Notes under the pieces: generated by a model
Seen by the model: the letters and a program-made list of their open reading frames with translations, nothing else
What the model was told of the DNA's origin: nothing
The model's database searches: none
DNA from: Acidobacteriota bacterium
Lineage (GTDB): Bacteria > Acidobacteriota > CAIWXX01
Direction: 5' to 3'
DNA: 64,000 nucleotides
Assembly: GCA_040755995.1 (NCBI GenBank)
Contig: JBFMAF010000026.1
Coordinates: 76,889 to 140,888 of the forward strand
Shown: in pieces, positions 11,384-60,735 of the stretch
Numbering within the stretch: position 1 is the stretch's first letter
Layout of the letters: the number at the start of each line of letters is the position of its first letter
Translations under genes and position numbers: made by a program

Positions 11384-13945
11384 ATGTTTTGGCAGCGTCT
11401 GCGCGAGGTCTTGGGCATGGAGTCGAACCGTCGCCGACCGCCCAGCATTTCGGAGAGATTCTCCCTCTTCAGGGAAATCGGCTCTGCCAACGACGAATTC
11501 CTCAGACGCCTGGCGGAGATGATGGAGGACGGAGCCGCAGGCAGGAGGATGGGGACGACGCGGGCGATCTACGAATCGCTGAGCGCGCCCATCGGCACCA
11601 TGGTCAGGGCACTTGCTTCCATGTCCGGCGGCGGCTATCCGGATCTTCTGGTTCGCCATGAGACATTGGATGGTGAGTTCAGGGCGGAGCTGCTGAAGGA
11701 GCAAGCTCAGGAGACCGGGCCGCTGGTCGTCACTCCGGACCACCCGGACGCTCTCCGGCCGGATCTCGTCGGACCGAAGGCCGCCCGTCTGGCCGAAGTG
11801 ATGACCCGCGCCGGCCTGCATGTGCCTCCTTTCTTCGCTGTCACCGTCTCCGGCTATCGTCGATTCATGAACGGTACGGGCTTGCAGAACCTGGTCGCTG
11901 CAACGATTTGGTCCACCGACTTGCGAGACAGGCGGCAGCTTCGCGACGCCTGCGAGAAGTGCCGCTCGGCCATCGAGGCTGCGCGCCTGCCGGTGGACCT
12001 GGAGGAGAACATGCGCCAGGCCTTCCGGGCGCTCCGTGAGAAGCACCCCGGCAAGTACGGTGTGGCCGTACGGTCGAGCGCGACGGTGGAGGACAGCGAG
12101 AGCTCGTTTGCCGGCCAGTTCGAAAGTGTCTTGAACGTCACAGAGGAAGGGCTTGCGCAGGCGTACAAGCAGGTAGTCGCCAGCAAGTATCGATTCGAGG
12201 CGCTGCAGTATGCAGTCGCGAGAGGGTTCCTGGATGACGACGTCGCCATGCCTGTAATGGTAATGGCGATGGTGCAACCGACAGCGGCCGGAGTGGCATA
12301 CTCGCGCGACGCGGAGCATCCGGACTGCAGGGTAGTGACGGCGGTCCGAGGGCTGGCGCAGCCACTCGTCGACGGACGCGCCATCCCTGACCGGTTCGTG
12401 GTCTCCCGATCGACACCGGCCGAAATCGTAGAGATGTTGCTGGGCCCGCAGACGCTGCAGCTCCGGTGCGCACAAGATGGCGGCATCGAGGAGATGTCGC
12501 AGGAGGAGCCGGGGCCTGGAACGGCTTCCATCGAGCCCGAGGTAGCGCGCCGGATTGCGCACGTGGCAGGAGGACTCGAGCGCCACTTCGGCGAGCCGCA
12601 GGACATCGAGTGGGCTCTGGATGAGAATGGAGATCTCATGATCGTACAGACGCGGCCACTCCACACCGCAGCGGCGGAAGCGGAGGGAAGCGAAGAAGCC
12701 CGAGCGCTGATCGAAGGGTACCGCGTTCTGGCTCGGGCGGCGATTCGCGCGTCTGGAGGCACGGCGTGCGGGCAAGTCCACCGCGTCGCCGACCCAACCG
12801 CCGTAGTCGACGTGCCGAATGATTCGGTGCTGGTCGTCCCGCACACGTCCCCCCGCCTGGCGGGTTTCATGGGGAGCATCCGCGCAATCGTGGCAGCGAC
12901 AGGAAGCCCCACCGGGCACATGGCCACCGTGGCCCGTGAATTCGGCGTGCCGTGCCTGGTCGGAATCGAGACATCTCTGAGCAGCCTGCAAGAAGGCATG
13001 GTCGTGACGGTGGATGCATGGTCCAAAGTCGTCTACGAGGGAGAAGTTCCGGAGGTCCTCCAGAGCCCGGCGGCTCGATCCGGCCACACCGGGGCCCGCC
13101 GCGATCCTCTGCGCGAATCCGCCGAACGACTGCTCAGCCGCGTCGCGCCGCTGACCTTGACCGACCCCGAGTCCCCGGAGTTCGTCCCCGCGAACTGCCA
13201 GACTCTCCACGACTTCGCACGCTTCGTTCACCAACGGGCCATGATCGAGATGTTCGAGGTCCAGTCGCTGTCCGCGAGGGAGCGGCGCCATGCCCGCCGC
13301 CTCGCATGGAAGGTTCCGATGGAGGTGGTGCTGCTCGACCTCGGGGGCGGTGTCGAACAGGATGGGGGATTCCGAGTGCCGATCGAGAAGGTCGTCTCGG
13401 TCCCACTGTGCGCTCTGATCGAAGGCATGACCGATCCCCGGCTGCGCTGGGCCGGCCCGGTGGGCTTCGACCTGAAAGGCTTCATGTCGGTGGTTGTGCG
13501 GAGCGCTGCCGACGACCAGCGATATGGCGAGCCGAGTTACGCCATATGCTCGAAGGATTACGTCCACTTCTCCTCGCGGCTGGCCTACCACTTCGCCACC
13601 GTCGACTCCGTCTGCGGCGCGTCCGTGAATGAGAACTACGCCCGCTTCCTCTTTTACGGCGGCGCTGCCATCTCGGCGCGGCGCGAATGGCGCGCCCACT
13701 TCCTCGCCAAGGTCCTCCAGTCCAATGGATTCAACGTGAAGCTCACGGGAGACCGCGTGGAGGCCGTACTGGCGAAGAGAGCGGCCGATGTGTTGGAGGA
13801 GACATTGGTGATGCTGGGACGCCTGATGGTCGCCTCGCGCCACCTCGACATGCTCATGGAAAGCTCGGCCACCGCCGAGCTGTTCTCTCGTGCCTTCCTC
13901 TCAGGCGACTTCGGCTTCGAAACCGTGCGCAAGCTGGGACCCTAG
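11384..13945 (+). CDS. PEP-synthase/dikinase-like protein 1 (ATP-grasp, phospho-His swivel, uncharacterised C-domain)
   Basis: VGPKAARL, AVRSSATVEDSESSFAGQF, QDIEWA, QTRP, GSPTGHMATVAREFGVP; no PEP/pyruvate TIM-barrel motifs recognised. Confidence 0.9.
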   Translation: MFWQRLREVLGMESNRRRPPSISERFSLFREIGSANDEFLRRLAEMMEDGAAGRRMGTTRAIYESLSAPIGTMVRALASMSGGGYPDLLVRHETLDGEFRAELLKEQAQETGPLVVTPDHPDALRPDLVGPKAARLAEVMTRAGLHVPPFFAVTVSGYRRFMNGTGLQNLVAATIWSTDLRDRRQLRDACEKCRSAIEAARLPVDLEENMRQAFRALREKHPGKYGVAVRSSATVEDSESSFAGQFESVLNVTEEGLAQAYKQVVASKYRFEALQYAVARGFLDDDVAMPVMVMAMVQPTAAGVAYSRDAEHPDCRVVTAVRGLAQPLVDGRAIPDRFVVSRSTPAEIVEMLLGPQTLQLRCAQDGGIEEMSQEEPGPGTASIEPEVARRIAHVAGGLERHFGEPQDIEWALDENGDLMIVQTRPLHTAAAEAEGSEEARALIEGYRVLARAAIRASGGTACGQVHRVADPTAVVDVPNDSVLVVPHTSPRLAGFMGSIRAIVAATGSPTGHMATVAREFGVPCLVGIETSLSSLQEGMVVTVDAWSKVVYEGEVPEVLQSPAARSGHTGARRDPLRESAERLLSRVAPLTLTDPESPEFVPANCQTLHDFARFVHQRAMIEMFEVQSLSARERRHARRLAWKVPMEVVLLDLGGGVEQDGGFRVPIEKVVSVPLCALIEGMTDPRLRWAGPVGFDLKGFMSVVVRSAADDQRYGEPSYAICSKDYVHFSSRLAYHFATVDSVCGASVNENYARFLFYGGAAISARREWRAHFLAKVLQSNGFNVKLTGDRVEAVLAKRAADVLEETLVMLGRLMVASRHLDMLMESSATAELFSRAFLSGDFGFETVRKLGP

Positions 13946-14101
13946 TCGGCTCGAGGCGAAGAAGATGCTGCCATCGAGTCGAGTCTGCGGGGCGGCGCAT
14001 CAGTGCCACTCTCTACTCTCCACCCTCTACTCTCTACGCGAGGCGCGGCCGACGCAGCCTCGCGTTGTTATTCGGTCCGAGGCCGCGCCTCGTTAGGGAA
14101 C

Positions 14102-16705
14102 ATGGGATTTCTGCGGAACCTGTTCATCCGCCGCCCTCCCGTCCGCGAGGTGCTGCGGCAGAAGTACAAGAGCTTTCGCCGCCTGCTCGCGACCAACGGC
14201 GCCGTGCTCGAGTTGATCACAGATCTGGAGGGTGCGATCGCGTCGGGCACGGGCATGTCTTCGGAAAAGCTCAGGGCGCTTCTGGATACGATGGAGGAGC
14301 GAGTCCGGTCGATGGTGCAGGATCTGAACGTGATCGCCGAGGGCCGGTACGCGAGCCTCGCGCAGAACGTCGCCAGGATCTCGGCGGAGATCGAGGAGGC
14401 GCTCAGGAGCGTGCGCGGCACCGCTGTGACGCCCGCGTGTCTCCCTCTCGAGGATGTAAACCGCGCTCTCGCCGACGCCGTCGGCGGGAAGGTCGCGAAC
14501 CTGGGCGAGGTTCGAAATGTAGTAGGTCTCCCGGTGCCCTTTGGCTTTGCCGTGACGGCGTTCGCCTACAGGTCTTTCATCGAAGGTGCGGGACTGCAGG
14601 GTCGCATCACGGAGCTGTGGAACTCCATCGACTGGGACGACCTTTCAACTGTGACGCGTGCTTCCGGCGAGATCCGTCGTCTGGTGCTCGGGGCCGAACT
14701 GCCGCAGGACGTGCGCGAGAACATCACGCTGGCCGCCCACGATCTCTATCGAAAGGCGCCGGGCCGGCCGCGCATCTCACTGCGCTCGAGCGCGATCGGC
14801 GAGGACAGCTACGCATCTTTCGCAGGGCAGTATGCCACCTACCTGAATGTGCCGCTTGAACAGGTGTTGAGGCGCTATCGAGAGACGGTGGCGAGCAAGT
14901 TCAGCGCGCGGGCGCTGGTCTACATGCATTCGAAGGGCTTCCGCGAGGAAGATCTCGCCATGAGCGTCGGCTGCTTCTTGATGGTGGATGCCGTCGCCGC
15001 GGGGGTGGCATACTCGGTGAACCCGTCCGACTCGAACCTCGACACCATGGTGATCAGCGCCGTCTGGGGGCTTGGCAGACCCGTTGTCGACGGGTCAGTC
15101 ACCCCTGACACCTACCTGCTGCCTCGGAGGCATGGAGGAGGCGGGCCGCAGCTGACGGTGGTCCGGAAGCCCACTCGCCTCGTAGCGGGCCCGCAGGAAG
15201 GTGTCGTGGAGGAGAACGTCCCGGAGGAGATGCAGGACAGCCCGTGTCTCACCGAAGAGCAGATACACAAGCTGGGGGAGTACGTCAGGGCGCTCGAGAA
15301 CCACTACCGCGCGCCTCAGGACGTGGAATGGGCGCTGGATCGCCAGGGCCGGCTCTTCATTCTGCAGACGCGCCCGCTGAGCTTGCCGGGCGGATTGGAC
15401 GAACTGAAGGTCGACGAGTCGGCGCTCGCGCGCTACACCGTGCTGCTCACCGGCGGGGTGACCGCCTGCCCCGGGGTGGGCGCGGGCCCCGTCTCGAGGG
15501 TGGGGGTCGACGACGACCTCGCCCGATTCCCGCAGGGCGGAGTCCTGGTCGCTCTGCAGAACTCGCCGCGGTTCGTGCAGGTGATGAATCGAGCCGCAGC
15601 GATCGTTACCCAGGTCGGCAGCGCCACGGGTCACATGGCCTCCCTCACGCGCGAGTACAGGGTCCCGACGATCACCAACTTGGTGCAGGCCGCGGCACTG
15701 GAAAACGGGACCGTGATCACAGTTGACGCGACTCATTGCCGCATCCTGGCCGGGCGCGCGGAGGAGCTCATCCTGGCAAGCGGGGCATCCCGCCCATCGC
15801 AACGCGACCTGCCATCGCTTGCTGTGCTCGGGCGCATCGCAGGACGCATCACGCGCCTGAATCTGACCGATCCTTCCAAGAACTCCTTCCGCGCCAAGAA
15901 CTGCCGTACCTACCATGATGTGGTCCGGTTCTGTCACGAGATGGCCATCTCCGAGATGTTCAACATCAGCGACCCCCGGAGCCTCCGTGACCGCGGGATG
16001 GCATTCCGGCTGCAAACGACGCTGCCCGGCGAGATCTATCTTATCGACCTGGGTGGAGGCGCAAACGTCGCGGCCGGCAGCCGCCTTGTCGCCCCCGAGC
16101 AAGTCATATCCATACCGATGCGTGCCCTGTATCGGGGAATGACGACCCCGGGCGTTCTGTGGGCGGATATCCGCCAAGCCGGCCCTCCTGACGCCTTTTC
16201 GATCTGGCTGGATTCGACTCTCGATGCGGCGCACGACGAGGCTGTCTTCAGTGAAAGCTCTTACGCTCTCGTCGGCGCCAACTACGTCAACTTCGGCTCT
16301 CGTCTCGGGTATCACCTGACGACGCTGGAGGCCGTGTGCAGCGAGACGAACCAGGAGAATTCCATCATCTTCCGATTCAAGGGGGGGGCGGCCGACCTCA
16401 GGCGCCGGGAGCGGCGCGTCCGGTTCATCGGCGAGGTGATGCAGGCGCACGGATTCGAAGTCGTGCGTCGACAGGATCTGCTCAATGCCTGGGTCAACGG
16501 GCTGCCGCAGCACAGAACTGAGGACCTGCTCGCGATGCTCGGGCGGCTCATCGGATGCGCTCGCCAGCTCGACGTGGTCATGGACACCGAAGCCACGGTC
16601 GCAGCGTGCGTGGAAGCGTTCATGCGCGGAGACTACGCGTTCTTCGAGTTCCGCCGGCCGGGCGGTTCGAAATTCGTGGATTCGGAGAGCATCAAGCGTG
16701 TATAA
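14102..16705 (+). CDS. PEP-synthase/dikinase-like protein 2 (paralogue of 11384..13945)
   Basis: VGGKVANLGE, RSSAIGEDSYASFAGQY, QDVEWA, QTRP, GSATGHMASLTREYRVP; start chosen at MGFLRNLF. Confidence 0.9.
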   Translation: MGFLRNLFIRRPPVREVLRQKYKSFRRLLATNGAVLELITDLEGAIASGTGMSSEKLRALLDTMEERVRSMVQDLNVIAEGRYASLAQNVARISAEIEEALRSVRGTAVTPACLPLEDVNRALADAVGGKVANLGEVRNVVGLPVPFGFAVTAFAYRSFIEGAGLQGRITELWNSIDWDDLSTVTRASGEIRRLVLGAELPQDVRENITLAAHDLYRKAPGRPRISLRSSAIGEDSYASFAGQYATYLNVPLEQVLRRYRETVASKFSARALVYMHSKGFREEDLAMSVGCFLMVDAVAAGVAYSVNPSDSNLDTMVISAVWGLGRPVVDGSVTPDTYLLPRRHGGGGPQLTVVRKPTRLVAGPQEGVVEENVPEEMQDSPCLTEEQIHKLGEYVRALENHYRAPQDVEWALDRQGRLFILQTRPLSLPGGLDELKVDESALARYTVLLTGGVTACPGVGAGPVSRVGVDDDLARFPQGGVLVALQNSPRFVQVMNRAAAIVTQVGSATGHMASLTREYRVPTITNLVQAAALENGTVITVDATHCRILAGRAEELILASGASRPSQRDLPSLAVLGRIAGRITRLNLTDPSKNSFRAKNCRTYHDVVRFCHEMAISEMFNISDPRSLRDRGMAFRLQTTLPGEIYLIDLGGGANVAAGSRLVAPEQVISIPMRALYRGMTTPGVLWADIRQAGPPDAFSIWLDSTLDAAHDEAVFSESSYALVGANYVNFGSRLGYHLTTLEAVCSETNQENSIIFRFKGGAADLRRRERRVRFIGEVMQAHGFEVVRRQDLLNAWVNGLPQHRTEDLLAMLGRLIGCARQLDVVMDTEATVAACVEAFMRGDYAFFEFRRPGGSKFVDSESIKRV

Positions 16706-16828
16706 TGACTTCCCGCGATGAAGCAGATGGACGCTCGCCGCGGGGACTCCGATCATCACCACAGGCGCATCCGTCAATCGTATGTCTGCGACTGGCCGTG
16801 CGGCGGGGCGCACCGGGACGCGGAGGGT

Positions 16829-16897
16829 GCTATACAGCGCGTCATAAGTCCACAGCAGATTCAACCGCTCGACGCAGTGTATGACGCGCTGTATAGC
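16829..16897. repeat. Perfect 18-bp inverted repeat upstream of sulP (copy 1 of a shared cis element)
   Basis: gctatacagcgcgtcata (16829-16846) / tatgacgcgctgtatagc (16880-16897), 33-nt spacer. Confidence 0.85.
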
Positions 16898-17010
16898 CGC
16901 GTTCTCAGGCTCTGCGCTCCCGTCTGTTGCAGTGCGCTACGCGCAGGCGCGGGTGATCAATCGGTCATTTCCACGCCCACCGGCGCATCGATACGCCGCA
17001 GAGGTGTGGA

Positions 17011-19188
17011 ATGCTGAAGCGGGTTTTCCCGTTTCTGGAATGGTTCAGGAGCTACGATCTCGGGAACCTGCGGGCTGATGTCATCGCGGGGCTGACCGTT
17101 GCCCTGGTGTTGATACCGCAGTCGATGGCGTACGCGCAGCTCGCGGGGCTGCCGGCGTACTACGGTCTTTACGCTTCGTTCCTGCCGCCGATCGCGGCCT
17201 CGCTGTTCGGGTCTAGCCGCCAGCTCGCTACGGGTCCGGTGGCTGTGGTTTCGCTGATGACGGCGGCGGCTCTGGAGCCGTTCGCGACGCGAGGCAGTGA
17301 TGCCTTCGTCGCGTACGCGATTCTGATGGCGCTGGTTGTGGGGCTTCTGCAGTTGGCGCTGGGCATCCTGAGGCTGGGCCTCGTGGTGAATTTCCTCAGC
17401 CATCCGGTGGTGAACGGTTTCACAAACGGGGCCGCCATCATCATAGCGACATCTCAGCTTTCCAAGATCTTCGGTGTCTACGTGGATGAAGCCGAGCATC
17501 ACTACGAGACGATCTACCGCGTAGTCAAGGCTGCGCTTGCATACACCCACTGGCCCTCGTTCGCGCTTGCGGTGCTGGCGTTCGCGCTGATGTATGGGAT
17601 CAAGCGATTCAATCCTAGAATTCCGTATGTGCTGGTGGCCGTCATCGTCACGGCATTTATCGCGTGGATGACGGGGTTCGAGCACGACGTGAAGGTCGGG
17701 ATATCCGCGATTCAATCGGAGGGTGTGAAGGCGAAGATACGCGAGTTCAACCGCACGATCGCTGAGATTGACGAGGTTGGGGCTGAGCGAGCCGCCCTGG
17801 GGGCGCGGATAATGGATGTCGAGGAGAAGGGTGGATCCCATTCGTTGGAGCTGCTGGAGCTTCGTCACCGTAGTGACGAGATCACGTTGCGGCTGGAGGA
17901 TCTCAAGGAAGGGAACTATTTCCAGCGGGATTATCTACGTTCGCTGCATTTCGTGGGGACGGCTGGGGCGGACGGTGACCTGCTGCTATGTCTGGCAGGA
18001 GAAGCGCCTGCGGACGCTGCGGTCGATGGAAAGTACTACCGGATTCGTGCGGCCAATCGCACGATCGACGAATCGAAGATCACGTTCATTGGTGGCGGTT
18101 CACTGGTGGGGGTCGTGCCGAAGGGGATACCTCTGCCGAAGGTGCCGGCCATCGACATGAGGGTCATGCTGCAGCTGCTGCCTGTCGCCGCCGTCATCTC
18201 GCTGCTCGGCTTCATGGAGGCAATCTCGATTGCAAAGGCCATGGCCGCCAAGACCGGGCAGCGGCTTGACCCGAATCAGGAGCTCATCGGGCAGGGGTTG
18301 GCGAATATCATGGGCGCGGCGACCCAAGGCTACCCGGTCTCAGGCTCCTTCTCTCGATCCGCCGTCAACCTGCAGGCGGGTGCAGTGACGGGGATGTCGA
18401 GCGTGTTTACCGGAGGCATCGTTCTCATCACCCTTCTGTTCCTGACGCCGACGCTTTATTACATTCCACAGTCGGTGCTCGCAGCAATCATCATGATGGC
18501 TGTGGTGAGCCTCTTGAACGTGCGTGGCTTCGTCCACGCGTGGCATGCCCAGAAATACGACGGACTTTTTGCTGTGATCAGCTTCGTCGCTACGCTGGTC
18601 TTCGCCCCGCACCTGGACAAGGGGATCATGTTCGGCGTTGCGCTGTCGCTCGGACACTACCTCTACCGGAACATGAAGCCGGGCGTGGCGAGTCTGTCCA
18701 TGCACCCGGACTGCTCGCTGAGAGACGCAGAGCGCTGGAACCTCAGGCAGTGCAAGTACATGGCGGTGATCCGTTTCGACGGGCCGCTTTTCTTCGCAAA
18801 CACGAGCTACCTGGAGGACCGGATTACGGAACGGATCAAGGCTATGCCGGAGCTGAGGCACGTGCTGATTGTGGCTCACGGCATCAACGAGCTCGACGCC
18901 TCGGGCGAGGAGATGCTCTCACTGTTGGTGGACCGCCTGCGGGCGGCCGGGTACGAGCTGTCGTTCAGCGGGTTGAAGGACACGGTTGTGGACGTCTTGA
19001 AGCGTACCCACCTTTATGAAAAGATAGGTGGAGAGCACATGTATCCCACGCAAGCCATCGCTCTGGATGCGATCCACGCCCGCGCGCACGTGGATTCCGA
19101 CGAAGAGGAATGCCCGCTGGTCACCGTCTGCCCCATCGAGAGGTTCAGGGCAATGGAGATGGCCAGGACCATGGAGGCAAGGAGATAG
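17011..19188 (+). CDS. sulP: SulP/SLC26 anion permease with STAS domain and a large soluble insertion
   Basis: AGLTVALVLIPQSMAYAQLAGLP..YGLY, NQELIGQGLAN, GSFSRSA, RFDGPLFFAN. Confidence 0.93.
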   Translation: MLKRVFPFLEWFRSYDLGNLRADVIAGLTVALVLIPQSMAYAQLAGLPAYYGLYASFLPPIAASLFGSSRQLATGPVAVVSLMTAAALEPFATRGSDAFVAYAILMALVVGLLQLALGILRLGLVVNFLSHPVVNGFTNGAAIIIATSQLSKIFGVYVDEAEHHYETIYRVVKAALAYTHWPSFALAVLAFALMYGIKRFNPRIPYVLVAVIVTAFIAWMTGFEHDVKVGISAIQSEGVKAKIREFNRTIAEIDEVGAERAALGARIMDVEEKGGSHSLELLELRHRSDEITLRLEDLKEGNYFQRDYLRSLHFVGTAGADGDLLLCLAGEAPADAAVDGKYYRIRAANRTIDESKITFIGGGSLVGVVPKGIPLPKVPAIDMRVMLQLLPVAAVISLLGFMEAISIAKAMAAKTGQRLDPNQELIGQGLANIMGAATQGYPVSGSFSRSAVNLQAGAVTGMSSVFTGGIVLITLLFLTPTLYYIPQSVLAAIIMMAVVSLLNVRGFVHAWHAQKYDGLFAVISFVATLVFAPHLDKGIMFGVALSLGHYLYRNMKPGVASLSMHPDCSLRDAERWNLRQCKYMAVIRFDGPLFFANTSYLEDRITERIKAMPELRHVLIVAHGINELDASGEEMLSLLVDRLRAAGYELSFSGLKDTVVDVLKRTHLYEKIGGEHMYPTQAIALDAIHARAHVDSDEEECPLVTVCPIERFRAMEMARTMEARR

Positions 19189-19191
19189 TCC

Positions 19192-20424
19192 ATGTCCGTC
19201 ATAGCGATATTCAGCAGCACTTACTGCTCGGGCAAGGAGGTTGCGGAGAAGGCCGCGCAGAAGATGGGATACGAGCTTATCGGCAACTCGCTGCTGGCTG
19301 AGGCGGCTCTACGGTTCAAGGTGCCCGAGGAGAAGCTGGCCCGCGCGATGTCCGGTCCGCCGTCGTTTTTCAACAGCCTCTTCCATGAGCGAGAGCACCA
19401 CATCGCATATGTCCGCGCAGTCCTCGCCGACCAGTTGAAGAAGGACAATCTCGTACACTACGGCTTCGCGATGCACCTGCTCCCGCGCTACGTCTCGCAC
19501 ATCCTTCGCGTCTGCCTGGTTGCGAACCGTGAGTACCGGGCCAACAAGGCGGTAGAACAGCGGCAGATTCCGAAGAAGGAGGCCCTCAAGCTCCTGAAGA
19601 GGGATGACGAGGAGGCGAGCCAATGGACCGGGTACCTTCACGGGTCAAGACCCTGGGACAAGAAGCTCTATGACATCAGGATCCCGATTCATAACACGAC
19701 GCTCGAGGCCGCTGTCAACATGATCTGCGAACAGGCGGGCGGAGACGCGTTGAAGCCGACGCCTGATTCATCCCGCGCGGTGGACGACTTCATTCTTGCC
19801 ACCAAGGTGAACCTCGCGCTGGTAGAGAAAGGGCATCATTACTGCGATGTGACCTCCAGCGAGGGCCAGGTGACGATCGTTATCAACAAGGAGGTCCTGC
19901 GCTTGGAGAGGCTCGAGAACGAGCTCGCCAAGATCGCGGAATCGGTTGAAGGGGTGAATACCGTGCATACCAAGGTCGGCCCTAAGTACAACCAGGCGAA
20001 TATCTCCTACCAGATCGATCTGCAGCTGCCATCCCGCGTGCTCCTAGTGGATGACGAGAAGGATTTCGTGCTGACGCTGTCCGAGCGCCTCCAGATGCGA
20101 GACATCAACTCATCGGTCGTGTACGACGGCGAGCAGGCTCTGTCGCACATCAAGGGAGAGGAGCCCGATGTCATGGTGCTCGATCTGCGGATGCCCGGCA
20201 TCGACGGTCTGGAGGTGCTGCGGCGGGTCAAGAAGGAGCACCCCGGCGTGGAAGTGATCATCCTGACAGGGCACGGGACGGAGAAGGACGAGGCGCTGGC
20301 GATGGAGCTCGGTGCGTTCGCCTACCTGCAGAAGCCCGTGGACATCGACGTGCTGGCGGGCAAGATGAGGGAGGCTTACCAGAGGATTGCCGCCAGGAAG
20401 GCCGCGGTGGAAAAGGATCTATAG
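19192..20424 (+). CDS. Cytidylate-kinase-like, BON-like and receiver domain fusion protein
   Basis: N-terminal VIAIFSSTYCSGKEVAEK (Cytidylate_kin2-like, similar to 49518..50324); C-terminal VLLVDDE...VLDLRMPGIDG...ILTGHG...YLQKP. Confidence 0.85.
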   Translation: MSVIAIFSSTYCSGKEVAEKAAQKMGYELIGNSLLAEAALRFKVPEEKLARAMSGPPSFFNSLFHEREHHIAYVRAVLADQLKKDNLVHYGFAMHLLPRYVSHILRVCLVANREYRANKAVEQRQIPKKEALKLLKRDDEEASQWTGYLHGSRPWDKKLYDIRIPIHNTTLEAAVNMICEQAGGDALKPTPDSSRAVDDFILATKVNLALVEKGHHYCDVTSSEGQVTIVINKEVLRLERLENELAKIAESVEGVNTVHTKVGPKYNQANISYQIDLQLPSRVLLVDDEKDFVLTLSERLQMRDINSSVVYDGEQALSHIKGEEPDVMVLDLRMPGIDGLEVLRRVKKEHPGVEVIILTGHGTEKDEALAMELGAFAYLQKPVDIDVLAGKMREAYQRIAARKAAVEKDL

Positions 20425-20505
20425 CGCGTGATCTGATCCCGGGCTCGGATGGCCGGGAGGACGCGGTGGGAGCCCGGTGTCGCATGAATCGGTGAGGTCC
20501 ATGTC

Positions 20506-22251
20506 GTGAACCAGGGAAAAGGCCTGCTGGCGAAACTCGGCCGGCTCCAGCGTTTCCTCCTCCCGCCGTGGTGGACGGAGGAGGAGGAGCCGCACAAGAT
20601 GTCGCTGAGGTATCGCTGGCTCTGGGTCAGCGGGGTCCTTTCGGCGTTGCTGGTCTCACTCACTCCACTGGTCGCCATGACCGTCATAAACATTTACGAG
20701 TACCAGAAGGCTTTCGAAGCGGAGATACAGTTTCCGGTTCAGCGACAGGTCTCGAACACGCGCCGGTCCATCGAGTTCTTTCTCGAAGAGCGGCGGGCCG
20801 CCCTCAACTTCATCATCCATGACAACACGTTCGAGGCGTTGTCCGAGCAGGAGCGGCTGACGGGTATTTTCAAGAACATGAAGGAGTTCTTCGGCGGGTT
20901 CGTGGACGTCGGCCTGATCGACTCACAGGGAATTCAGCGCTCCTATGTCGGCCCTTACGGCCTCAAGGGGAGATCGTACGAGCAGCAGGTGTGGTTCGAC
21001 GAGACGGTTCTTCGCGGGAGTAACGTCAGCGACGTCTTCCTGGGTTATCGCAAGTTCCCGCACTTTGTCATCGCCGTGAAGAACGAGAAGAGGGACGGCG
21101 ATTTCTACATCCTGCGTGCCACGTTCAATGCCGAGATCTTCGACAACCTCCTGGCGTCAATCGAGTTTCGCCCATCAAGCGACGTGTTCATCGTCAACCG
21201 CGCCGGCGTGCTCCAGACACCGTCGCGCTCCAACGGCCCAATCCTTTCGATGACACAGCTGCCGGTTCCGCCGTATAGCGATAGAACCGAGGTGCGCGAC
21301 GTCGTCGACCGTGACGGCCATCCCACCCTCGTCGGCTACGCCTACATCAAGGACTCGCCGTTCGTGCTCATGGTCGCAGAGCGACACGAGACCCTGATGA
21401 AGGACTGGATAACGCTACGGCGAAATCTACTCATCTTCCTGATCGTAAGCATGGTGCTGATTACCGTCTTCGTACTGGCCGGCTCGCGGAACATGGTCAC
21501 TCGCATCTGGGAGGCGGATCTCAAGCGGGCATCCGTCTTGCACCAGATCGAGTACACGAACAAGATGGCCTCAATCGGGCGCCTGGCCGCCGGTGTCGCG
21601 CACGAGATCAACAACCCGATGGCCATCATCAACGAGAAGGCCGGGCTCATGAAGGACCTGATGATGCTGGAGGAGGAGTTCCCGAAGAAGGAGAAGTTCC
21701 TTTCGCTGGTGGACCCGATCCTGACCTCGGTCGATCGCTGCAGAACGATCACGCACAGATTGCTCGGGTTCGCCAAGCGGATGGATGTGCGGGTCGAGAC
21801 GATACACATGGACCTGCTCATCAGAGAGGTCCTGAGCTTTTTGGAAAAGGAATCCAGCTATCGCAACATCACGATCCACCTCTCGTTCGCCGATGATCTG
21901 GTGCCAATCCAGAGCGATCGCGGCCAGCTGCAGCAGGTGTTTCTTAACATCCTGAACAACGCCTTCGCGGCGGTCAAAGATGGAGGCCGAATCGACATCA
22001 GCGCCGAGCCGAGAGGGATCGAGAAGGTGGCGGTTACCATCACAGACAACGGTGTCGGGATCTCCGAGGAAAACATCAAGCACATCTTCGAACCATTCTT
22101 CACGACGAAGGAGAAGTACGGCACGGGACTGGGCCTCTCGATCACACATGGCATCGTCGAGAAGCTGGGTGGACAGATCGAAGTGAGGAGCGCGCTGGGC
22201 GAGGGCACCAGCTTTGTGGTGACCCTGCCCGTTCAGCGCAGGGAGGAGTAG
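20506..22251 (+). CDS. Membrane sensor histidine kinase (Cache-like extracytoplasmic domain)
   Basis: Two TM helices; GVAHEINNP, LNILNNA, DNGVGI, FEPFFTTK, GTGLGLSI; start could be downstream (20599). Confidence 0.93.
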   Translation: MNQGKGLLAKLGRLQRFLLPPWWTEEEEPHKMSLRYRWLWVSGVLSALLVSLTPLVAMTVINIYEYQKAFEAEIQFPVQRQVSNTRRSIEFFLEERRAALNFIIHDNTFEALSEQERLTGIFKNMKEFFGGFVDVGLIDSQGIQRSYVGPYGLKGRSYEQQVWFDETVLRGSNVSDVFLGYRKFPHFVIAVKNEKRDGDFYILRATFNAEIFDNLLASIEFRPSSDVFIVNRAGVLQTPSRSNGPILSMTQLPVPPYSDRTEVRDVVDRDGHPTLVGYAYIKDSPFVLMVAERHETLMKDWITLRRNLLIFLIVSMVLITVFVLAGSRNMVTRIWEADLKRASVLHQIEYTNKMASIGRLAAGVAHEINNPMAIINEKAGLMKDLMMLEEEFPKKEKFLSLVDPILTSVDRCRTITHRLLGFAKRMDVRVETIHMDLLIREVLSFLEKESSYRNITIHLSFADDLVPIQSDRGQLQQVFLNILNNAFAAVKDGGRIDISAEPRGIEKVAVTITDNGVGISEENIKHIFEPFFTTKEKYGTGLGLSITHGIVEKLGGQIEVRSALGEGTSFVVTLPVQRREE

Positions 22252-22259
22252 GAGGAGGG

Positions 22260-22634
22260 ATGGAGCGGCTGCGGGTCCTGTTGGTCGACGACGAGGAGGA
22301 GCTCGTGTCGACCATGGTCGAAAGGCTCAGGCTGCGCGACATCGAGGCGGATGCCGAAACCGACGGCTACAGGGCGCTGGACCGCGTGATGGCATCGGAC
22401 TACGACGTGGTGCTGGTGGATGTGAAGATGCCCGGGCTCGGCGGCATGGAGCTTCTCGGCGAGATCCGGAAGGAACGCCCCGATGTGCCGGTCATTCTCC
22501 TGACGGGCCACACGGCGGAGCAAGAGGGGGTCGAGGGGATGCGGATCGGCGCCTTCGACTATCTTATGAAGCCTATCAACATCGACGACCTCATCCTGCG
22601 CATGAGGGATGCCGCCGGCCGCCGGCAGGGCTGA
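22260..22634 (+). CDS. Single-domain response regulator
   Basis: VLLVDDE, VDVKMPG, LLTGH, YLMKP. Confidence 0.92.
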   Translation: MERLRVLLVDDEEELVSTMVERLRLRDIEADAETDGYRALDRVMASDYDVVLVDVKMPGLGGMELLGEIRKERPDVPVILLTGHTAEQEGVEGMRIGAFDYLMKPINIDDLILRMRDAAGRRQG

Positions 22635-22640
22635 GGAGCA

Positions 22641-23324
22641 GTGAGCAGGGATCTCGAACCACTGCTCTCCGAAGCGAGGCTGGCCTTCTTCGGGAAGATC
22701 ACCGCGAGCCTCTCCCACGAGCTCAACAACGTGCTCTCCTACATCAACGAGCTCTCCGGGCTGACCGGAGATCTGCTCGCAGCGGGCGCTCAAGGCCGAC
22801 CTGTCAACACCGAGAAGCTGCAGAGGCTGGCGGAGCGGATCGGCGGTCAGGTCCATCGCGGCGAGGTGCTGATCAAGAGGCTGAACCGGTTCTCTCACTC
22901 GGCAGACGTGCCGCGCAAGACGTTCGATCTGGGGAAGCTGCTGGAGGACATCATGGGGCTCGCTCAACGGCCGGCAACCATGAAGGGGTTCGAGCTCACC
23001 GCGAGCTTCCCAGATGAATCGATCAACATCCACAGCGACCCATTCGGCCTCCAGCACCTGGTATTCACATGCTTCGAGGCGATCTGGGAGTCTCCGGCCG
23101 TGCGCAAGACCGTGAGCGTGAGTTGCAGGAGGGAGGAGAAGGGCGCGAGCGTTCTTGTCGGCGCTGCCGAGCCGCTCGCGAGGAACGACGGCGTTATCTC
23201 GCGCCTACGCTTTGCGGCCCGCCTTGCCGGTGACCTGGGCGGACGTATGACCGAACCTGCCGAGCAGAGCCCGGACCCGATCACGATCTGGCTCCCGTCC
23301 TCGACCGAGGATGGCGAACGATAA
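22641..23324 (+). CDS. Histidine-kinase-like protein with intact H-box and degenerate ATPase domain
   Basis: ASLSHELNNVL; no N-box Asn, DxGxG or GxGLG motifs in the C-terminal half. Confidence 0.75.
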   Translation: MSRDLEPLLSEARLAFFGKITASLSHELNNVLSYINELSGLTGDLLAAGAQGRPVNTEKLQRLAERIGGQVHRGEVLIKRLNRFSHSADVPRKTFDLGKLLEDIMGLAQRPATMKGFELTASFPDESINIHSDPFGLQHLVFTCFEAIWESPAVRKTVSVSCRREEKGASVLVGAAEPLARNDGVISRLRFAARLAGDLGGRMTEPAEQSPDPITIWLPSSTEDGER

Positions 23325-31216: not shown

Positions 31217-32848
31217 CTACTTGACCTTGTAGCTGACCACGTTGCTGGTCAGGCCGCCGGACACCACCTTCACTTTGTACGTCTTCCCGCTCCTGCACTT
31301 CGACGGTATCGTCACATCCAGCCGGCTCAGCGAGGCTGATTTCGGCGTGACCTTCAGCTTCCCGAAGTAGACGGTGTTCGAGGCTGCGCTGGAGGAGAAT
31401 CCCGAGCCGTAGATGGTGGCGGCCGCCCCCGGCTTCCCCTTCTTGCTCTTGATCGACGTGATCTTCGGTCCGGCGCCAGGAGTGTCTTTCACCGTGACGA
31501 TGGCAATTGAGCTGTCCACCGACCCGCAGGCGTTGGTTACGCGCACCCAATATTCGGCGTTCGCCGTGAGCGGCGGCGTGGTGTAAGCCGGCCAATCGAT
31601 GCCCACGGGGCTGCCAGTGCCAGCTCCCTTGTACCACTGGTACCGCAACGGCGCCGTGCCCGTCGCGCCGACGCTGAGCGTGGCATACTGGCCGCTCGAG
31701 ATTGTCAGGTCGGAGGGCTGAACGTGAATCGCCGGTGGCGTGCATGCGCCGCCCGTCAACGTGGTCCCCGGAAACTCGCCCGTCCGTTCGCTGATCACGG
31801 CGTTCGCGTTGCGGGTGTGTGGGTGGGTGAACGTGTCGGCCACGAAGTAGTACGTGGTGCCCGGGGCGAGCCCGTTGACTGGCATGCTGGTGATTGACTT
31901 GCTCGTGGTGCTGCCGTGCAGCGTGTATGGACCTCCGGGGGTCGTCGAATAGTAGATCCGATACCCGCCGTCGTCGCCCGTGTAGGAGATAGGCGACCAG
32001 CTGGTCAGAATGGATGTGTTGTCGGAACCGAGGGCATGCGGTGCCACCGGCGCCACCGTCTGCGTGCTCTCCCAGTCACCCCCCTGCTTCTGATTCAGAA
32101 ACTCCCGGAGCGATGCGTTCGACGTATGCAGCGCGTTCCAACGGAAGTCGGACCAGTCGTTGACCAGGCCGCTGAGGTTGAGCAGCGAGCTCGGGACCTC
32201 CCCCTCCAGACGGTTCGATGACAGCCCCAATCCGTACAAGGATGTCAGGTTGCCAAGCTCGGCCGGGATGGCACCGCTGAGTTGATTCCTGGAGAGCGAC
32301 AGCCGGCGGATGTTCGGAAGTCCTCCCAGCGCTGGCGGGATGGGACCGCTCAGCATGTTGTCATTCAGGTACAGATCGGACACACTGGCGAGGTTCCCCA
32401 GTTCAGCCGGAATATCGCCGCTGAGCTGATTGTTGCCAAGGGTGAGGGTTTCAAGCTGGAGAAGGCCGCCCAGTGCCGCCGGTATGTTGCCGCTCAGGTG
32501 GTTGCTATCCAGTTGGAGTTCCTTCAGATTGATGAGTTGTCCCAGCTCGGCAGGAATCGTCCCACACAGGTTGTTGTGAGCGAGAAAGACATAGGTGACG
32601 GTCCAGTTCCCGTCGGTGTAGACGAAAGCCCATGTGTTCTCGGTTCCGGGCAACGCGAATCCGTCGTCCGCGAGTGGCGGCGTCCTCCAGCCGGTGTTGT
32701 TATTCCAACCGTCCCCGTTCGTGCTGTTGTAGAGCGCGATCAACGCGGCGCGTTCCTCGGGAGGTATCGCGGCCGAAACCGGTCGCCCCAGCGACCCGAG
32801 CAGGAACGCAGCCGTGAACGGTGCCCACAGTGCCCTCTTCACAATCAT
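31217..32848 (-). CDS. Secreted LRR-FN3-Ig-IPT/TIG protein, copy 1
   Basis: Signal peptide; ERAALIALYNSTNGDGW cap; 24-aa plant-type LRRs (LxLxxNxLSGxIPxxLG); GLAPGTTYYF; LRYQWY; IPT; SD AGGAGG. Confidence 0.9.
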   Translation of the reverse strand: MIVKRALWAPFTAAFLLGSLGRPVSAAIPPEERAALIALYNSTNGDGWNNNTGWRTPPLADDGFALPGTENTWAFVYTDGNWTVTYVFLAHNNLCGTIPAELGQLINLKELQLDSNHLSGNIPAALGGLLQLETLTLGNNQLSGDIPAELGNLASVSDLYLNDNMLSGPIPPALGGLPNIRRLSLSRNQLSGAIPAELGNLTSLYGLGLSSNRLEGEVPSSLLNLSGLVNDWSDFRWNALHTSNASLREFLNQKQGGDWESTQTVAPVAPHALGSDNTSILTSWSPISYTGDDGGYRIYYSTTPGGPYTLHGSTTSKSITSMPVNGLAPGTTYYFVADTFTHPHTRNANAVISERTGEFPGTTLTGGACTPPAIHVQPSDLTISSGQYATLSVGATGTAPLRYQWYKGAGTGSPVGIDWPAYTTPPLTANAEYWVRVTNACGSVDSSIAIVTVKDTPGAGPKITSIKSKKGKPGAAATIYGSGFSSSAASNTVYFGKLKVTPKSASLSRLDVTIPSKCRSGKTYKVKVVSGGLTSNVVSYKVK

Positions 32849-33155
32849 GTCAAACCTCCTCAGCCGATCCTCTTCGTTCCCTTCATCTGAAATAGGCGAC
32901 AAAAGGCAGCCAAGGGGCTCACCCGCAGGCAACTCCAACAACATCGTCAGAAAACGATACACGTCGTCGCGCCGATCTCCCACCGGCGAGCACCTTCACC
33001 TTCGTCATGGCTTTGACTTTGGATCGGCCTTGTGGCATCGTAATCCGGCATCACGCGAGTCGCTCCGGTGCATGTCCTGAGGCTATGGTGGTCCGGCTAG
33101 TTGGCACGTACGATCCCGTTCCGCCCATAAATTGTGAGGAAAAGGAGTCAACGCA

Positions 33156-33887
33156 ATGAACATCCGCAGAACGTTTGCGATGGCGCTATTGCTCTGTCTG
33201 GCAGCAGGTGCCTCGACAGTTTTCGCTGATTCGGCTGATCCGGAAATCGACTGGATCATGGCCCTTTCCGGCATCCAAGCCACCACGGTCAAGCACGCGG
33301 GAGGCCGGGTTGACGTAGTGTGCACACTCGTCGGAAACACCTCCGGTCTCATCGGCACAATTCGCGAGGGGCTCAAGAAGAGAGGATGGACGATCGCGGA
33401 GGGGTCTGACGTCCAGGCGGTGGGAGCCAGCGTGAGCAAGATCGTGGCGGAAAAGGCGGGCATGCACCTCCTGGTTTCCACTCAAGAGGTGGGTGTGCTC
33501 CAGTCGATGCAGTTGAGCCTCACCAAGTCCGGCGCGTCGGGAATGCCCGCGACGAGCACGACCAAGCAGGCCGAGGTCGCAGTTGGTGAGTCCTCTGGTG
33601 CGAGCCAGGCCATCGTCATCGACGACAGCCATCTGGAACGGACCGTTCATTGCACAGCGGGCCAGAAAGTAGTGCTCAACGGCAGCCACAATGAGCTCAC
33701 CATCACGGGGAAGTGCGGCGCGATTGAGCTCTACAGCAGCCACAACCACATCGTCGTAAAGGCGCAGACTGAAAGAATCCGCATCCTCGGCAGCTACAAC
33801 ACCGTCGAATGGTCGAAGAGCGCCAATCCGACTGCGCCTCAGGTCGCCAACCTGGGTTCTGACAACGAGGTGGAGGCGATTGAGTAA
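33156..33887 (+). CDS. Secreted protein with DUF3060-like C-terminal beta-repeat domain
   Basis: Signal peptide; VVLNGSHNELTITGKCGAIEL..SHN...ILGSYNTVEW...LGSDNEV. Confidence 0.75.
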   Translation: MNIRRTFAMALLLCLAAGASTVFADSADPEIDWIMALSGIQATTVKHAGGRVDVVCTLVGNTSGLIGTIREGLKKRGWTIAEGSDVQAVGASVSKIVAEKAGMHLLVSTQEVGVLQSMQLSLTKSGASGMPATSTTKQAEVAVGESSGASQAIVIDDSHLERTVHCTAGQKVVLNGSHNELTITGKCGAIELYSSHNHIVVKAQTERIRILGSYNTVEWSKSANPTAPQVANLGSDNEVEAIE

Positions 33888-34007
33888 GCGGTAGACGCAA
33901 AGAACTGCGCCGGGCTGGGCCCACTGTTTGCCAGGACGCCAGCCGTCGGCGACTCCAAGCGCCTCGAGAGGACGGGCAGGCTGGCGCCGCTGCGGCGAGG
34001 CGCTCCG

Positions 34008-35252
34008 TCAGTAGTCGGGCAGGTCCACCACTTTCCAGTAGTTGCCCGTCCCGCCGATGTTCTCGATGATGTTCAGCGATGTGGCGTGTGTCTGGCGGTT
34101 GATGTTGTTCATGATCCGGAACATGTTCTGCCGCGCCTGCGCCTCGCGCATCTGATCGTACATGGTGCCTTTGCTCGCACCTGCACGGGATGGGGCAGAA
34201 TACTGCTGGGGCTGGGCCGGCGGGCCGACCTGGGCAGCATATTGTGCGCGGAACTGCTGCTGTTGCGACGGCGTCAACCTGCTCCAATTGCCCTCCATCA
34301 GCTGCCAGAGCAGGCTGGCGGAGCAGACCAGCTGCTTCTGCTCCACCGTCATCTGCGGGAAACGGCCCATCAGGTCGCTCTCCACGGATTGGCGCAGTGA
34401 ATCCGTCAACTGCACGGGCTGACCCGACAATCCGGAAAGAAACGCGAGATACCGAACCATGCCGGTCACATCCCGGTCCGTCAGGACTGACTGTGTTGCC
34501 GCGTCGTACGCCAGAACACGGATGTGCCGGTTCATCACCTGGATCATGAGCGGCTTCTCCGATTCCGGCAGCTCGCGCGATGCCAGGTAGAGAGCCGCAA
34601 AGAGCTGCTGGCGGGCGAGCCCGATGCGAAGCGGGTCGGTCAGCGTGTAGAGCTGTTGCAAGGATCGGTTCAGGCTCTCCAACTCCTGCGTGTGCCTCTC
34701 CGGCTGTTGATTGAACTCCAGGATGCAGCGATCCTCGAGCTCCTTCGCCTCAGCTGGGGTCACCGGCTGGCCGATGATGAACTGGAGCAGCCCGATACCG
34801 GCGCTCACCTGGCCGCGCGACAGCGCGTAGGCTCCAGCGCGCGCCAGGACCGTGTTGTCCGTGTTCACTGCCGCAGCAGGTGAGGTCGGAGGTGCGCCCG
34901 AGGGAGGCGAGGCAGTCGACTGGCGGAGAAAGCGCATCTGCACACCGTTGCCATCCTGAAGCACCAGCTCCGTCGTGGTGAGCTGCAGCACCGCATACTG
35001 CACAGGAGCCCCGCCGGCAGCGTCCTGGAGCCAGAGGACGTTGCCGGAGACACCGCAGCGCCCCTGGCTGCGGCCGTTTGCGTGCTGCAGGCCATATGAC
35101 CCGTCGGCCGCGAGGACCAGCGTGATGCCGTACTGGCTGTCAACCCACGTCCCATCCAGCGTCTGTGCGTCGGCGCCCGTCCCCGGCGCTAGAAGGACCA
35201 GACACGACCACAGCACAATCGACTGTGCGATACTTGGATTCCTCGCCGCCAT
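34008..35252 (-). CDS. Secreted hypothetical protein (N-terminal beta-barrel-like domain, helical body)
   Basis: Signal peptide ending ADA-Q; LDGTW motif; long Gln/Leu-rich helical region. Confidence 0.7.
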   Translation of the reverse strand: MAARNPSIAQSIVLWSCLVLLAPGTGADAQTLDGTWVDSQYGITLVLAADGSYGLQHANGRSQGRCGVSGNVLWLQDAAGGAPVQYAVLQLTTTELVLQDGNGVQMRFLRQSTASPPSGAPPTSPAAAVNTDNTVLARAGAYALSRGQVSAGIGLLQFIIGQPVTPAEAKELEDRCILEFNQQPERHTQELESLNRSLQQLYTLTDPLRIGLARQQLFAALYLASRELPESEKPLMIQVMNRHIRVLAYDAATQSVLTDRDVTGMVRYLAFLSGLSGQPVQLTDSLRQSVESDLMGRFPQMTVEQKQLVCSASLLWQLMEGNWSRLTPSQQQQFRAQYAAQVGPPAQPQQYSAPSRAGASKGTMYDQMREAQARQNMFRIMNNINRQTHATSLNIIENIGGTGNYWKVVDLPDY

Positions 35253-35329
35253 CGGTTCACCCCCGTTTGATGTTTGGCTCATGTTCTGCAGTGTGGTGTC
35301 CTACTCCAGCGCCGGCACAACCGCCTCGC

Positions 35330-36964: not shown

Positions 36965-37184
36965 TTCAAACCTCCTCTGACGATTGTCTTCGTTCCCTTC
37001 ATCAAGAAATGGCGACAAAAGTCAGCCAAGGGGCTCACGGGCTCCTGTTGACCACACACCGCGCCTCGCACGTGACATTGCGCTGCGCGATCGGGATGCT
37101 GCGGCCGGCCAGCCATGAGACAGGCCTATCGGAAGGGTGCTCAACGAGGGCCAGCAGGAGGTGTGGGGGCGATCGCCTTGGCGA

Positions 37185-49386: not shown

Positions 49387-49517
49387 GGCTAGGGCCTGGG
49401 GGTCCTTTTCGCGAGTGCCGCGCCGGAGGTTTCACCCATGCCGGCATCATAGCGCGGAGACGCCGATCCGGTCCAGGAGCCGGGCACCCGCGCACCCGCC
49501 GTGACTGGGAATCCGGG

Positions 49518-50324: not shown

Positions 50325-50404
50325 GATCAAGTTCCTCCTGCTACCCGGTAGGTCCCGGCGAGCTGACTGGGCTCAGGCAGGCGCGTAGAAGGGGAGGTCG
50401 TCAC

Positions 50405-51484: not shown

Positions 51485-51590
51485 GATGACTAACTCCTCA
51501 GTCCTTCAGGACCGGCGCATGAAATGTTCACCCCGATTTGGCTTCACTGATACAGGGACGACCCCGCCGAATCATGGGTACTCCGCATGA

Positions 51591-54792: not shown

Positions 54793-54857
54793 GCCGCATG
54801 CTCTGGATCGGAAATGGGCAGGGCGCGCGCCGCGCGCCCCTACGCCTCATCTGGCGG

Positions 54858-54998
54858 TTTGCATTGTGCCCTTTGCATTTCGCGCTCCACACTGTGCACT
54901 CCACGCTCTGCATATTGTTTACATATGGCAATGTGCACGGCGCATGTTCCTTACACTTTGCATTCAGTGCATACCGTGCACTTTGCATGTTGCATTGT
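54858..54998. repeat. AT-richer tract of degenerate TGCA-core repeats
   Basis: Repeated ttgcat/tgtgcac units between the convergent lon and NtrC-type genes. Confidence 0.6.
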
Positions 54999-54999
54999 C

Positions 55000-56349: not shown

Positions 56350-56380
56350 GACTCAGTCCTCCCCGGAGGCGATGAACATG

Positions 56381-59371: not shown

Positions 59372-59433
59372 TTGACTGAAATAGGTAATATCATTAGTCT
59401 GATGTTGTCTTAAGATCGTAAGGTTATGACAAC
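59372..59433 (+). promoter_or_regulatory. Putative sigma70 promoter and GntR autoregulatory half-sites
   Basis: TTGACT-N17-TAGTCT (59372-59400); GTTGTC (59404) ... GACAAC (59428) inverted half-sites overlapping the start codon. Confidence 0.5.
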
Positions 59434-60190: not shown

Positions 60191-60205
60191 TGAAAGGAGG
60201 AGCCA

Positions 60206-60730: not shown

Positions 60731-60735
60731 CGGAG

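Follow-up and report, generated by a model that had tools for sequence, protein, structure and literature searches.

Dikinase-like proteins with a putative split acceptor module lie beside anion transporters and receivers in bacteria that carry dsrA

Two tandem genes, A and B, lie on the forward strand of a 64,000-nucleotide stretch of an Acidobacteriota genome (contig JBFMAF010000026.1, positions 76,889 to 140,888; hereafter the window, whose numbering is used throughout). Their products resemble phosphoenolpyruvate (PEP) synthase and pyruvate phosphate dikinase (PPDK) over part of their length. They belong to a large family, found in sulfur-respiring bacteria, in which the ATP-using half of PEP synthase is retained and another module takes the place of the pyruvate-binding part. 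The dikinase engine and its reuse are known; the literature searched does not describe the putatively split acceptor module, its two classes of conserved residues, the recurrent catalytically dead forms, or the tie to dsrA and anion transporters.

Gene A (11384-13945, + strand, 853 aa; delimited by Pfam, alignment and orthologues) encodes N-terminal helices (residues ~24-105), an ATP-grasp domain (127-436), a swivel domain with H512 (codon 12917-12919) and a C-terminal domain (575-853), here called the C-domain. Gene B has the same architecture (open reading frame 14003-16705, + strand, from frame calling and Pfam) and probably starts at 14102 instead of 14003, because its orthologues measure about 860 aa. 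The two proteins are 35% identical. Pfam finds PPDK_N (E 2e-73 and 3e-90) and PEP-utilizers (PF00391) in both, while the last ~290 aa of each match no Pfam or NCBIfam family. The original prediction, made from the letters of the stretch alone, had described tandem proteins with intact ATP-grasp motifs, a swivel histidine in TGHMA, and CxTxHDxxxFxH, RLxYH and FxGG motifs in a domain that replaces the PEP/pyruvate barrel, and Pfam and alignment bear it out: TGHMA, CxTxHDxxRFxH, RLxYH and FxGG occur in the translations of both genes, both keep the ATP-grasp residues K132, R230, E409, Q422 and R424 (A numbering), and the barrel family PF02896 matches neither. A family search of this genome returned six members. 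One of the others lies behind a dCache kinase, another ahead of a receiver ~17 kb from dsrA, and one sits among unrelated genes. The original prediction suggested that A and B may act as a heteromer; of 20 A-orthologous loci, 13 have a B-type gene directly after the A-type gene.

Sequence and modelling support the view, also taken in the original prediction, that A and B are not PEP synthases. The PEP synthase model TIGR01418, whose cut-off is 740 bits, gives A and B 270 and 316 bits, and the match reaches no further than position 464 of 784; PF02896 has three matches in the genome, none of them in these genes; and a full PPDK is encoded elsewhere (1326 bits), although no canonical PEP synthase above cut-off is present in this genome. 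PEP synthase (PpsA, TIGR01418/NF005057; PDB 2ols, 8a8e, 9dae) and PPDK share with the family the order of ATP-grasp and central swivel histidine, and the nucleotide-binding residues are likewise conserved. The family differs in having no PEP/pyruvate barrel, extra N-terminal helices, a different C-domain, a swivel motif TGHM/L instead of TSHAA, and one to nine paralogues per genome, placed beside transporters and receivers.

The acceptor module is predicted to be bipartite, formed by the N-terminal helices together with the ~270-aa C-domain, with the dikinase engine inserted between them. The three N-terminal helices of A (11453-11698, +; from alignment, coupling and the model of a short orthologue) contain the near-invariant residues N36, L40 and L88, and the C-domain (13106-13942, +; from AlphaFold2 and conservation) contains the invariant D610, R613, H616 (codon 13229-13231), H736, G759, G760, R770 and D822. 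AlphaFold2 models residues 575-853 of A confidently (150 sequences; pLDDT 91.7, pTM 0.87) as an alpha+beta domain with an antiparallel sheet, a run of consecutive strands with no alternating beta/alpha units; by secondary structure this is not the beta/alpha barrel of a PEP-binding domain. Forms that consist only of N-terminal helices and C-domain occur naturally among the best 150 matches and the fetched loci. One of them, the 409-aa short orthologue L098, is predicted to fold as a single unit (pLDDT 89.9, pTM 0.88), in which the HDxxRFxH helix completes a four-helix bundle with the three helices of the N-terminus (aligned range 22-182). Coupling analysis (362 sequences, effective number 188) recovered pairs within the swivel as well as Y85-F614 and M513-K798. 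The first of these two is the strongest inter-domain coupling and agrees with the L098 bundle, though it draws on similar alignments; the second perhaps reflects subfamily structure, and the remainder is noise, so no docking site of the swivel is claimed from couplings. The predicted replacement of the barrel by a domain of ~250 aa was thus correct for the C-domain and overlooked the ~105-aa N-terminal helical segment that also appears to be part of the acceptor unit.

Among solved structures, the modelled acceptor module has no convincing match. A C-domain profile searched against PDB sequences gave a best E of 0.53, and Foldseek searches with the C-domain and the combined N-terminal and C-domain model gave no match at E <=0.001. 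The best VIA-align matches, coproporphyrinogen oxidase for the C-domain (Z 5.5, root-mean-square deviation (rmsd) 4.5, 138 aligned) and a generic helical bundle for the combined model (Z 11.4, rmsd 2.8, 123 aligned), both score in the range of common arrangements and speak neither for a new fold nor for its absence. An Atlas search returned only clusters that were unnamed or labelled PEP synthase. No description of this C-domain or family was found in the literature covered, subscription papers and most supplements lying outside the search; the word 'dikinase' is absent from the main text of PMC4641369, PMC5840216 and PMC10102598.

Gene C (57909-59096, - strand, 395 aa; from translation, Pfam and alignment) had been listed as a third paralogue. 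It is indeed a relative, but one without ATP-grasp or swivel histidine, in which the N-terminal helices are fused directly to the C-domain and the equivalent of R613 is a histidine. Its C-domain is 53% identical to that of a full-length gene with the same GntR-CBS-DASS-LCIB neighbours, and in the tree it groups with two other short forms and the full-length gene from a divergent GntR-CBS-DASS-LCIB-CitMHS block (L157, L160). This grouping and the shared block mark gene C as a conserved internal deletion rather than debris. Among 390 complete sequences, 362 are intact, 15 short and 13 degenerate; residues were counted after thinning to <55% identity, which left 85 intact and 18 dead members (22 dead before thinning), with six 'degenerate' sequences left out of the dead set as fragments, frameshifts or near-intact copies. 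Each of the eight C-domain invariants is present in every one of the 85 intact members. The dead members have kept R613 in 9 of 18, H616 in 11 and N36 in 11, while H736 and R770 are kept in 17 and G760 and D790 in all 18. A midpoint-rooted FastTree of the C-domain places dead forms in at least eight separate positions, mostly with support >0.8, and at 3 of the 20 A-orthologous loci the position of A is occupied by a short form. From their selective loss in dead forms we infer that R613 and H616 serve a second phosphotransfer, and that the site that remains (H736, R770, G760, D790) binds a partner or ligand that is required even when catalysis has been lost. Dead forms that arose repeatedly and were kept in the same operon slots fit regulation better than metabolism.

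A profile built from the six paralogues matched 1512 clusters at 50% identity, 1181 of them at E 1e-10. The family is confined almost wholly to carriers of dsrA. Among 251 genomes of its own phylum, the 20 carriers, from six taxonomic families, all fall among the 31 genomes with dsrA, and none of the 220 genomes without dsrA has a member. In a second phylum (that of G251, a Desulforhabdus record), 56 of the 60 carriers among 151 genomes have dsrA, and 4 of 75 dsrA-negative genomes carry the family. The genomes are incomplete and related, and nominal p-values of this association overstate it. A single genome may hold up to nine paralogues, beside different transporters.

The original prediction, as one of two alternatives, tied A and B to a receiver network that controls anion transport, and the gene linkage on which it drew recurs in relatives. 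From the 581 GTDB loci of one subfamily we surveyed the best 80: 61 have a kinase, 63 a receiver and 56 a TSUP transporter nearby, and among the 47 of these loci that extend over at least 15 kb the counts are 46, 45 and 42. As a control, 20 long-contig loci from 20 second-phylum genomes were compared with 20 stretches of the same contigs, using labels from BLAST to window and locus proteins, by which some divergent TSUPs were missed in both sets. An anion transporter was near the family gene in 16 of 20 loci and in none of the control stretches; a stand-alone receiver in 15 against 2; a kinase in 14 against 5; a sigma54 activator in 12 against 3; and a Usp gene in 8 against 0. The 20 loci orthologous to A include 14 with cytidylate-kinase-like (CMK-like) genes, 15 with TSUP and 8 with receivers. 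In one member (L200) a receiver is fused at the C-terminus. For L060, an 860-aa relative, a complex with the adjacent receiver was predicted at 0.42, the best of three controls scoring 0.00. Such a score is rated weak: a pass at 0.60 or less was obtained for 18 of 157 solved complexes and also for both of the 2 in 215 mismatches that passed. The runs agree in at least 80% of contacts with partner pLDDT >=79, and the prediction, which assigns no interface, gives weak support to a complex of L060 with this receiver.

The gene order around some family members recurs in a genetically studied cluster. Korte et al. found that insertions in the TauE, receiver and PPDK-like genes of Desulfovibrio (DVU0251, 0247, 0246) confer nitrate resistance, that a mutant in the downstream phosphatase of D. 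vulgaris is not nitrate-resistant, and proposed a leaky thiosulfate transporter, according to the accessible text (PMC4001038). The intact member L221 reproduces the order of that cluster (TauE, hypothetical protein, phosphonate-binding protein, PAS/HAMP kinase, receiver, dikinase-like gene, dual-specificity phosphatase); L210 and L212 match it without the phosphatase, and L212 starts with DUF169, as in strain G20. With the window the nitrate cluster (DVU0251-DVU0245 / Dde_0597-0605) shares TauE, a kinase, a stand-alone receiver and the PPDK-like gene. It differs in its phosphonate-binding (PtxB-like) protein and dual-specificity phosphatase, neither of which Pfam finds in this window, and the portion of the paper available gives no mechanism for the dikinase-like gene and no description of its C-domain (PMC4001038).

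Other arrangements occur among the relatives. In L158, L159, L167 and L224 a long one-component sigma54 activator immediately precedes the family gene, and a TSUP operon is transcribed divergently. The arrangement of these four loci resembles DVU0151 with DVU0150-0146 (PMC4641369). DVU0152 would be the putative family member there. A conserved C-terminal extension of ~200 aa, beta-rich by eye and without a Pfam match, marks a subfamily without signalling neighbours (L163:7977-11090, L207:8634-11819, L225:8389-11991 and P0265). In the genome of the window, one locus (L005, G000:C34:50400-65000) holds dsrA and dsrC along with genes for siroheme synthase, a DsrL-like flavoprotein and AprA-like proteins. 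The gene immediately ahead of the apr genes there is CMK-like, which points to a possible link of the CMK-like family with metabolism of adenosine 5'-phosphosulfate. Two more ATP-grasp and swivel genes lie outside the family (L001:1-1351 on the - strand / G000:C34:26864-29119, and G000:C49:197487-198742), with the swivel C-terminal or separate.

Downstream of B, the window encodes on the + strand a SulP sulfate-permease family protein with STAS domain (17011-19188; Pfam, NCBIfam), a cytidylate-kinase-like domain (Cytidylate_kin2) fused to a receiver (19192-20424; Pfam), a dCache sensor histidine kinase (20506-22251; Pfam), a stand-alone receiver without output domain (22260-22634; Pfam) and a 227-aa HisKA-like protein with a DHp domain and a degenerate ATP-binding domain (22641-23324; homologue alignment). 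The list of genes given in the original prediction, including a kinase-like protein without ATP boxes, agrees with this except for a BON domain, for which Pfam has no match in 19192-20424 or in the CMK-like gene at 49518-50330; BON was found in a paralogue elsewhere (L004:6896-7729, E 5e-6). A ~140-aa hydrophilic insertion splits the permease domain of SulP into two stretches in both Pfam and TIGR00815. Homologues of the 227-aa protein keep H26, E27 and N30 in 27 of 27 sequences and have no N, G1 or G2 boxes and no Gly-rich boxes. By architecture we take it to work like ChpT or Spo0B; its profile matches HisKA kinases in the PDB, with ChpT not among the 15 matches. A first count found this gene in none of 100 family loci and suggested that it was unlinked to the family, which a profile search overturned: genes of this type occur in 22 of the 151 second-phylum genomes, all 22 of which carry the family, 9 of them within 20 kb of a listed family gene.

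The 305-bp gap between B and SulP contains a palindromic, REP/MITE-like repeat of ~70 bp (16831-16897, on neither strand in particular) with a second copy in the window at 59107-59137; genome-wide counts give 24 exact copies of its 15-base arm on both strands and 73 with one mismatch. The stretch that SulP and gene C have in common upstream is this genome-wide repeat and was therefore rejected as a regulatory site. With such a gap, A-B and SulP cannot be assumed to form one operon, and no RNA holder is listed for the region. SulP was found in none of the 20 loci orthologous to A, against 15 with TSUP, which suggests that SulP is here a local substitute for TSUP.

Gene C belongs to a second cluster, for which the listing in the original prediction of Usp, CMK-like, TauE, REC-Lon, NtrC-type and kinase genes stands, apart from a BON domain. 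An operon on the - strand (48571-52469; Pfam) contains Usp, CMK-like, TauE/TSUP and a 292-aa open reading frame, with a sigma54 -24/-12 site ahead of it at 52522-52506. It is followed at 52768-57862 by REC-Lon (+), an NtrC-type regulator (-) and a HAMP kinase (-) (Pfam, NCBIfam). The Lon protease (52768-54792) has a receiver inserted before the AAA+ domain and no LON N-domain, a type described as DVU3303. Three-component systems of this kind are described as DVU3303-3305 (PMC3333781, PMC10102598, in their accessible text). Compared by gene content, DVU3298-3305 shares with the window a kinase, an NtrC-type regulator, REC-Lon and a sigma54 operon with anion transporter and Usp, DVU3302-3298 of D. 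vulgaris resembling the operon 48571-52469 (PMC3333781); its anion transporter matters under chlorate (PMC10102598), and the parts of both papers that were available mention no dikinase-like gene, unlike the situation here. The cluster runs beyond the 59.1 kb at which it had been thought to end, into GntR, a CBS-type open reading frame, a DASS transporter and an LCIB-type carbonic anhydrase (59426-63080, +; Pfam and relatives L157 and L160), with a CitMHS-like transporter, and this block appears from sequence to be a conserved divergent partner of C-type genes. The 174-aa open reading frame 60206-60730 (+), between GntR and DASS, has the position and length of the CBS protein of L157/L160. Elsewhere the window encodes a LysM/peptidoglycan-binding protein (2144-2896), two paralogous LRR-fn3-Ig-TIG surface proteins (31217-37018, -) and a Ser/Thr kinase with TPRs (44783-48385).

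The architecture, the conservation pattern, the gene linkage and the restriction to dsrA carriers are observations; the activity, acceptor and direction of signalling put forward here are predictions. With slightly better than even confidence, we read A and B as receiver-linked, ATP-driven phospho-histidine transferases that regulate TSUP/DASS/SulP transport of oxyanions (of the sulfate, sulfite and thiosulfate type) in dsrA carriers. Given intact motifs and known dikinase chemistry, that of the rifampin phosphotransferase RPH (PMC4844700), the ATP-grasp domain would phosphorylate swivel H512 with the beta-phosphate of ATP, and AMP and phosphate would be released. The swivel would then dock on the N-terminal helices and C-domain, where R613 and H616 on the four-helix bundle could serve the second transfer. 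In the least certain step, the acceptor might be a component of the transporter module (TSUP/DASS/SulP, a small partner, or the CMK-like protein), and the stand-alone receiver, phosphorylated by the neighbouring sensor kinase, might bind and gate the enzyme. Dead forms such as gene C would keep the partner or ligand surface (H736, R770, D790 and the glycine pair) and act as non-catalytic modulators. A regulatory role has a precedent in VadK/Rv1127c, a PPDK-derived ATP-grasp and histidine-domain protein that autophosphorylates; it is described as truncated to two domains (bioRxiv 2025.10.30.685616), whereas members of this family carry a conserved bipartite acceptor unit of ~380 aa and are linked to receivers and anion transporters. 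The original prediction had the enzymes either phosphorylate a metabolite or feed phosphoryl groups into the receivers. The link to receivers and anion transport is supported; the direction is less certain, since the transporter is no less constant a partner than the receiver, and three loci have neither receiver nor kinase within 10 kb. That the receiver acts on the enzyme is therefore at least equally probable.

Several observations weigh against regulation of transport as the function. The association with dsrA is partly physical: in 8 of the 20 own-phylum carriers the family gene lies within 20 kb of dsrA, and co-transfer therefore contributes. Fifteen of those 20 belong to a single taxonomic family. 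Carriers of dsrA without a family match (11 of 31 in the own phylum, 20 of 76 in the second) indicate that the family is not essential. L158, L159 and L167 have a sigma54 activator and TSUP operon, but neither receiver nor kinase lies within 10 kb; at L163 and L207 that distance holds none of the three partners, transporter, receiver and kinase. The complex prediction concerns L060, not A or B. For the nitrate cluster, DVU0246 is placed in the family by synteny only, with a length of just 744 aa; the syntenic members L210 and L212 are degenerate; and the G20 phosphatase mutant has the same sign as the other mutants (PMC4001038, accessible text). The precedents with a named acceptor, namely RPH, GWD, HapC, MarK and the Hpe kinase, act on small molecules or glucans, in the sources so far as available, and eight invariant His, Asp, Arg and Gly residues could equally form a small-molecule site.

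The strongest rival, unlikely though worth serious consideration, takes A and B for small-molecule dikinases whose substrate, an organic or sulfur anion, would be imported by the transporter or made beside it, with the two-component genes controlling expression only; RPH and the aromatic-monomer kinases work on small molecules in this manner. A and B share with RPH the ATP-grasp and swivel engine, and the Arg/Glu pair that its acceptor domain uses for the second transfer (PMC4844700) is comparable to R613/H616. The presence of many paralogues beside different transporters, the extended subfamily of L163, L207, P0265 and L225 and its lack of signalling neighbours would fit, as would weak couplings (z 4-6, within noise) that put the first N-terminal helix near the HD helix and the H736 hairpin, in one cleft. 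RPH itself (NF041857; PDB 5hv1, 5fbs; PMC4844700), with PigC/RedH/HapC, GWD and the MarK/Hpe kinases, resembles the family in joining a dikinase engine to another acceptor domain. In RPH, according to the text available, the swivel is C-terminal and the acceptor domain in the middle, while here the swivel is central and the acceptor unit is split around the engine. The RPH model scores A and B at 175 and 202 bits against a cut-off of 999; the match is limited to ATP-grasp and swivel, with the best stretch confined to ATP-grasp. Its substrate-binding fold is not listed in the fold searches with the C-domain or combined models, an absence that does not exclude it. Against this rival stand the dead forms repeatedly retained in the same operon positions and the receivers without output domains as immediate neighbours, once fused; and neighbour clusters present in at least 3 of 80 loci include no recurring catabolic enzyme (27 of 47 cluster representatives scanned).

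Less probable still is an alternative histidine kinase, in which phosphate would pass from ATP to H512, to H616 on an HPt-like bundle, and from there to the ChpT-like protein or the aspartate of a receiver, so that an ATP/AMP-state signal would enter the relay. H616 and R613, which sit on the modelled bundle, are invariant in intact members and relaxed only after loss of ATP-grasp or swivel; the weak L060-receiver score and the 22 of 22 genomes with the ChpT-like gene point the same way. The bundle matches include CheA P1 (1tqg, Z 7.6, rmsd 3.0, 104 aligned), which however ranks 24th, among generic bundles. In CheA P1 the histidine is borne on the second helix, and the HPt motif is HxxKG, also on the second helix. 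The likeness to the HPt domain (PF01627) is that of a four-helix bundle, to which residues 22-182 of the L098 model align with generic bundles first; the conserved histidines lie here on the fourth helix, not the second, and the sequential CheA P1 alignment puts the HD helix last. None of 11 short forms has a PF01627 match at E up to 1. Sensor kinases for the receivers are present in any case, and on this reading the receivers would lack an output; L158, L159 and L167 lack a receiver or kinase nearby. That A and B are divergent PEP synthases, as the 'pyruvate, water dikinase' labels on homologues have it, is very improbable: PEP synthase models do score best among profiles across the N-terminal two thirds, and no canonical enzyme passes its cut-off in the genome, yet the match breaks off, the barrel is missing by profile and by confident model, and a full PPDK is present.

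A bolder version, rather doubtful at present, makes the family a class of signalling kinases specific to dissimilatory sulfur metabolism, in which the beta-phosphate of ATP would pass to H512, then to H616 on a bundle built from the two ends of the chain, and finally to a protein, which could be the transporter module or a receiver, at its aspartate. If this is true, ATP/AMP status and sensor-kinase input would be coupled to sulfate and thiosulfate uptake, with dead paralogues as modulators.

The sulfate transporters of sulfate reducers are still putative, according to the accessible text of PMC5840216, and in the loci examined this family is the commonest enzyme-like companion of TSUP/DASS genes. 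The label 'pyruvate, water dikinase' on its members inflates metabolic reconstructions. The family offers a mechanism for the Desulfovibrio nitrate-resistance cluster, and so is relevant to souring control, and the named residues H512, R613, H616 and H736 make its function directly testable. It is most likely a signal-controlled switch on neighbouring anion transporters, not an enzyme of carbon metabolism.

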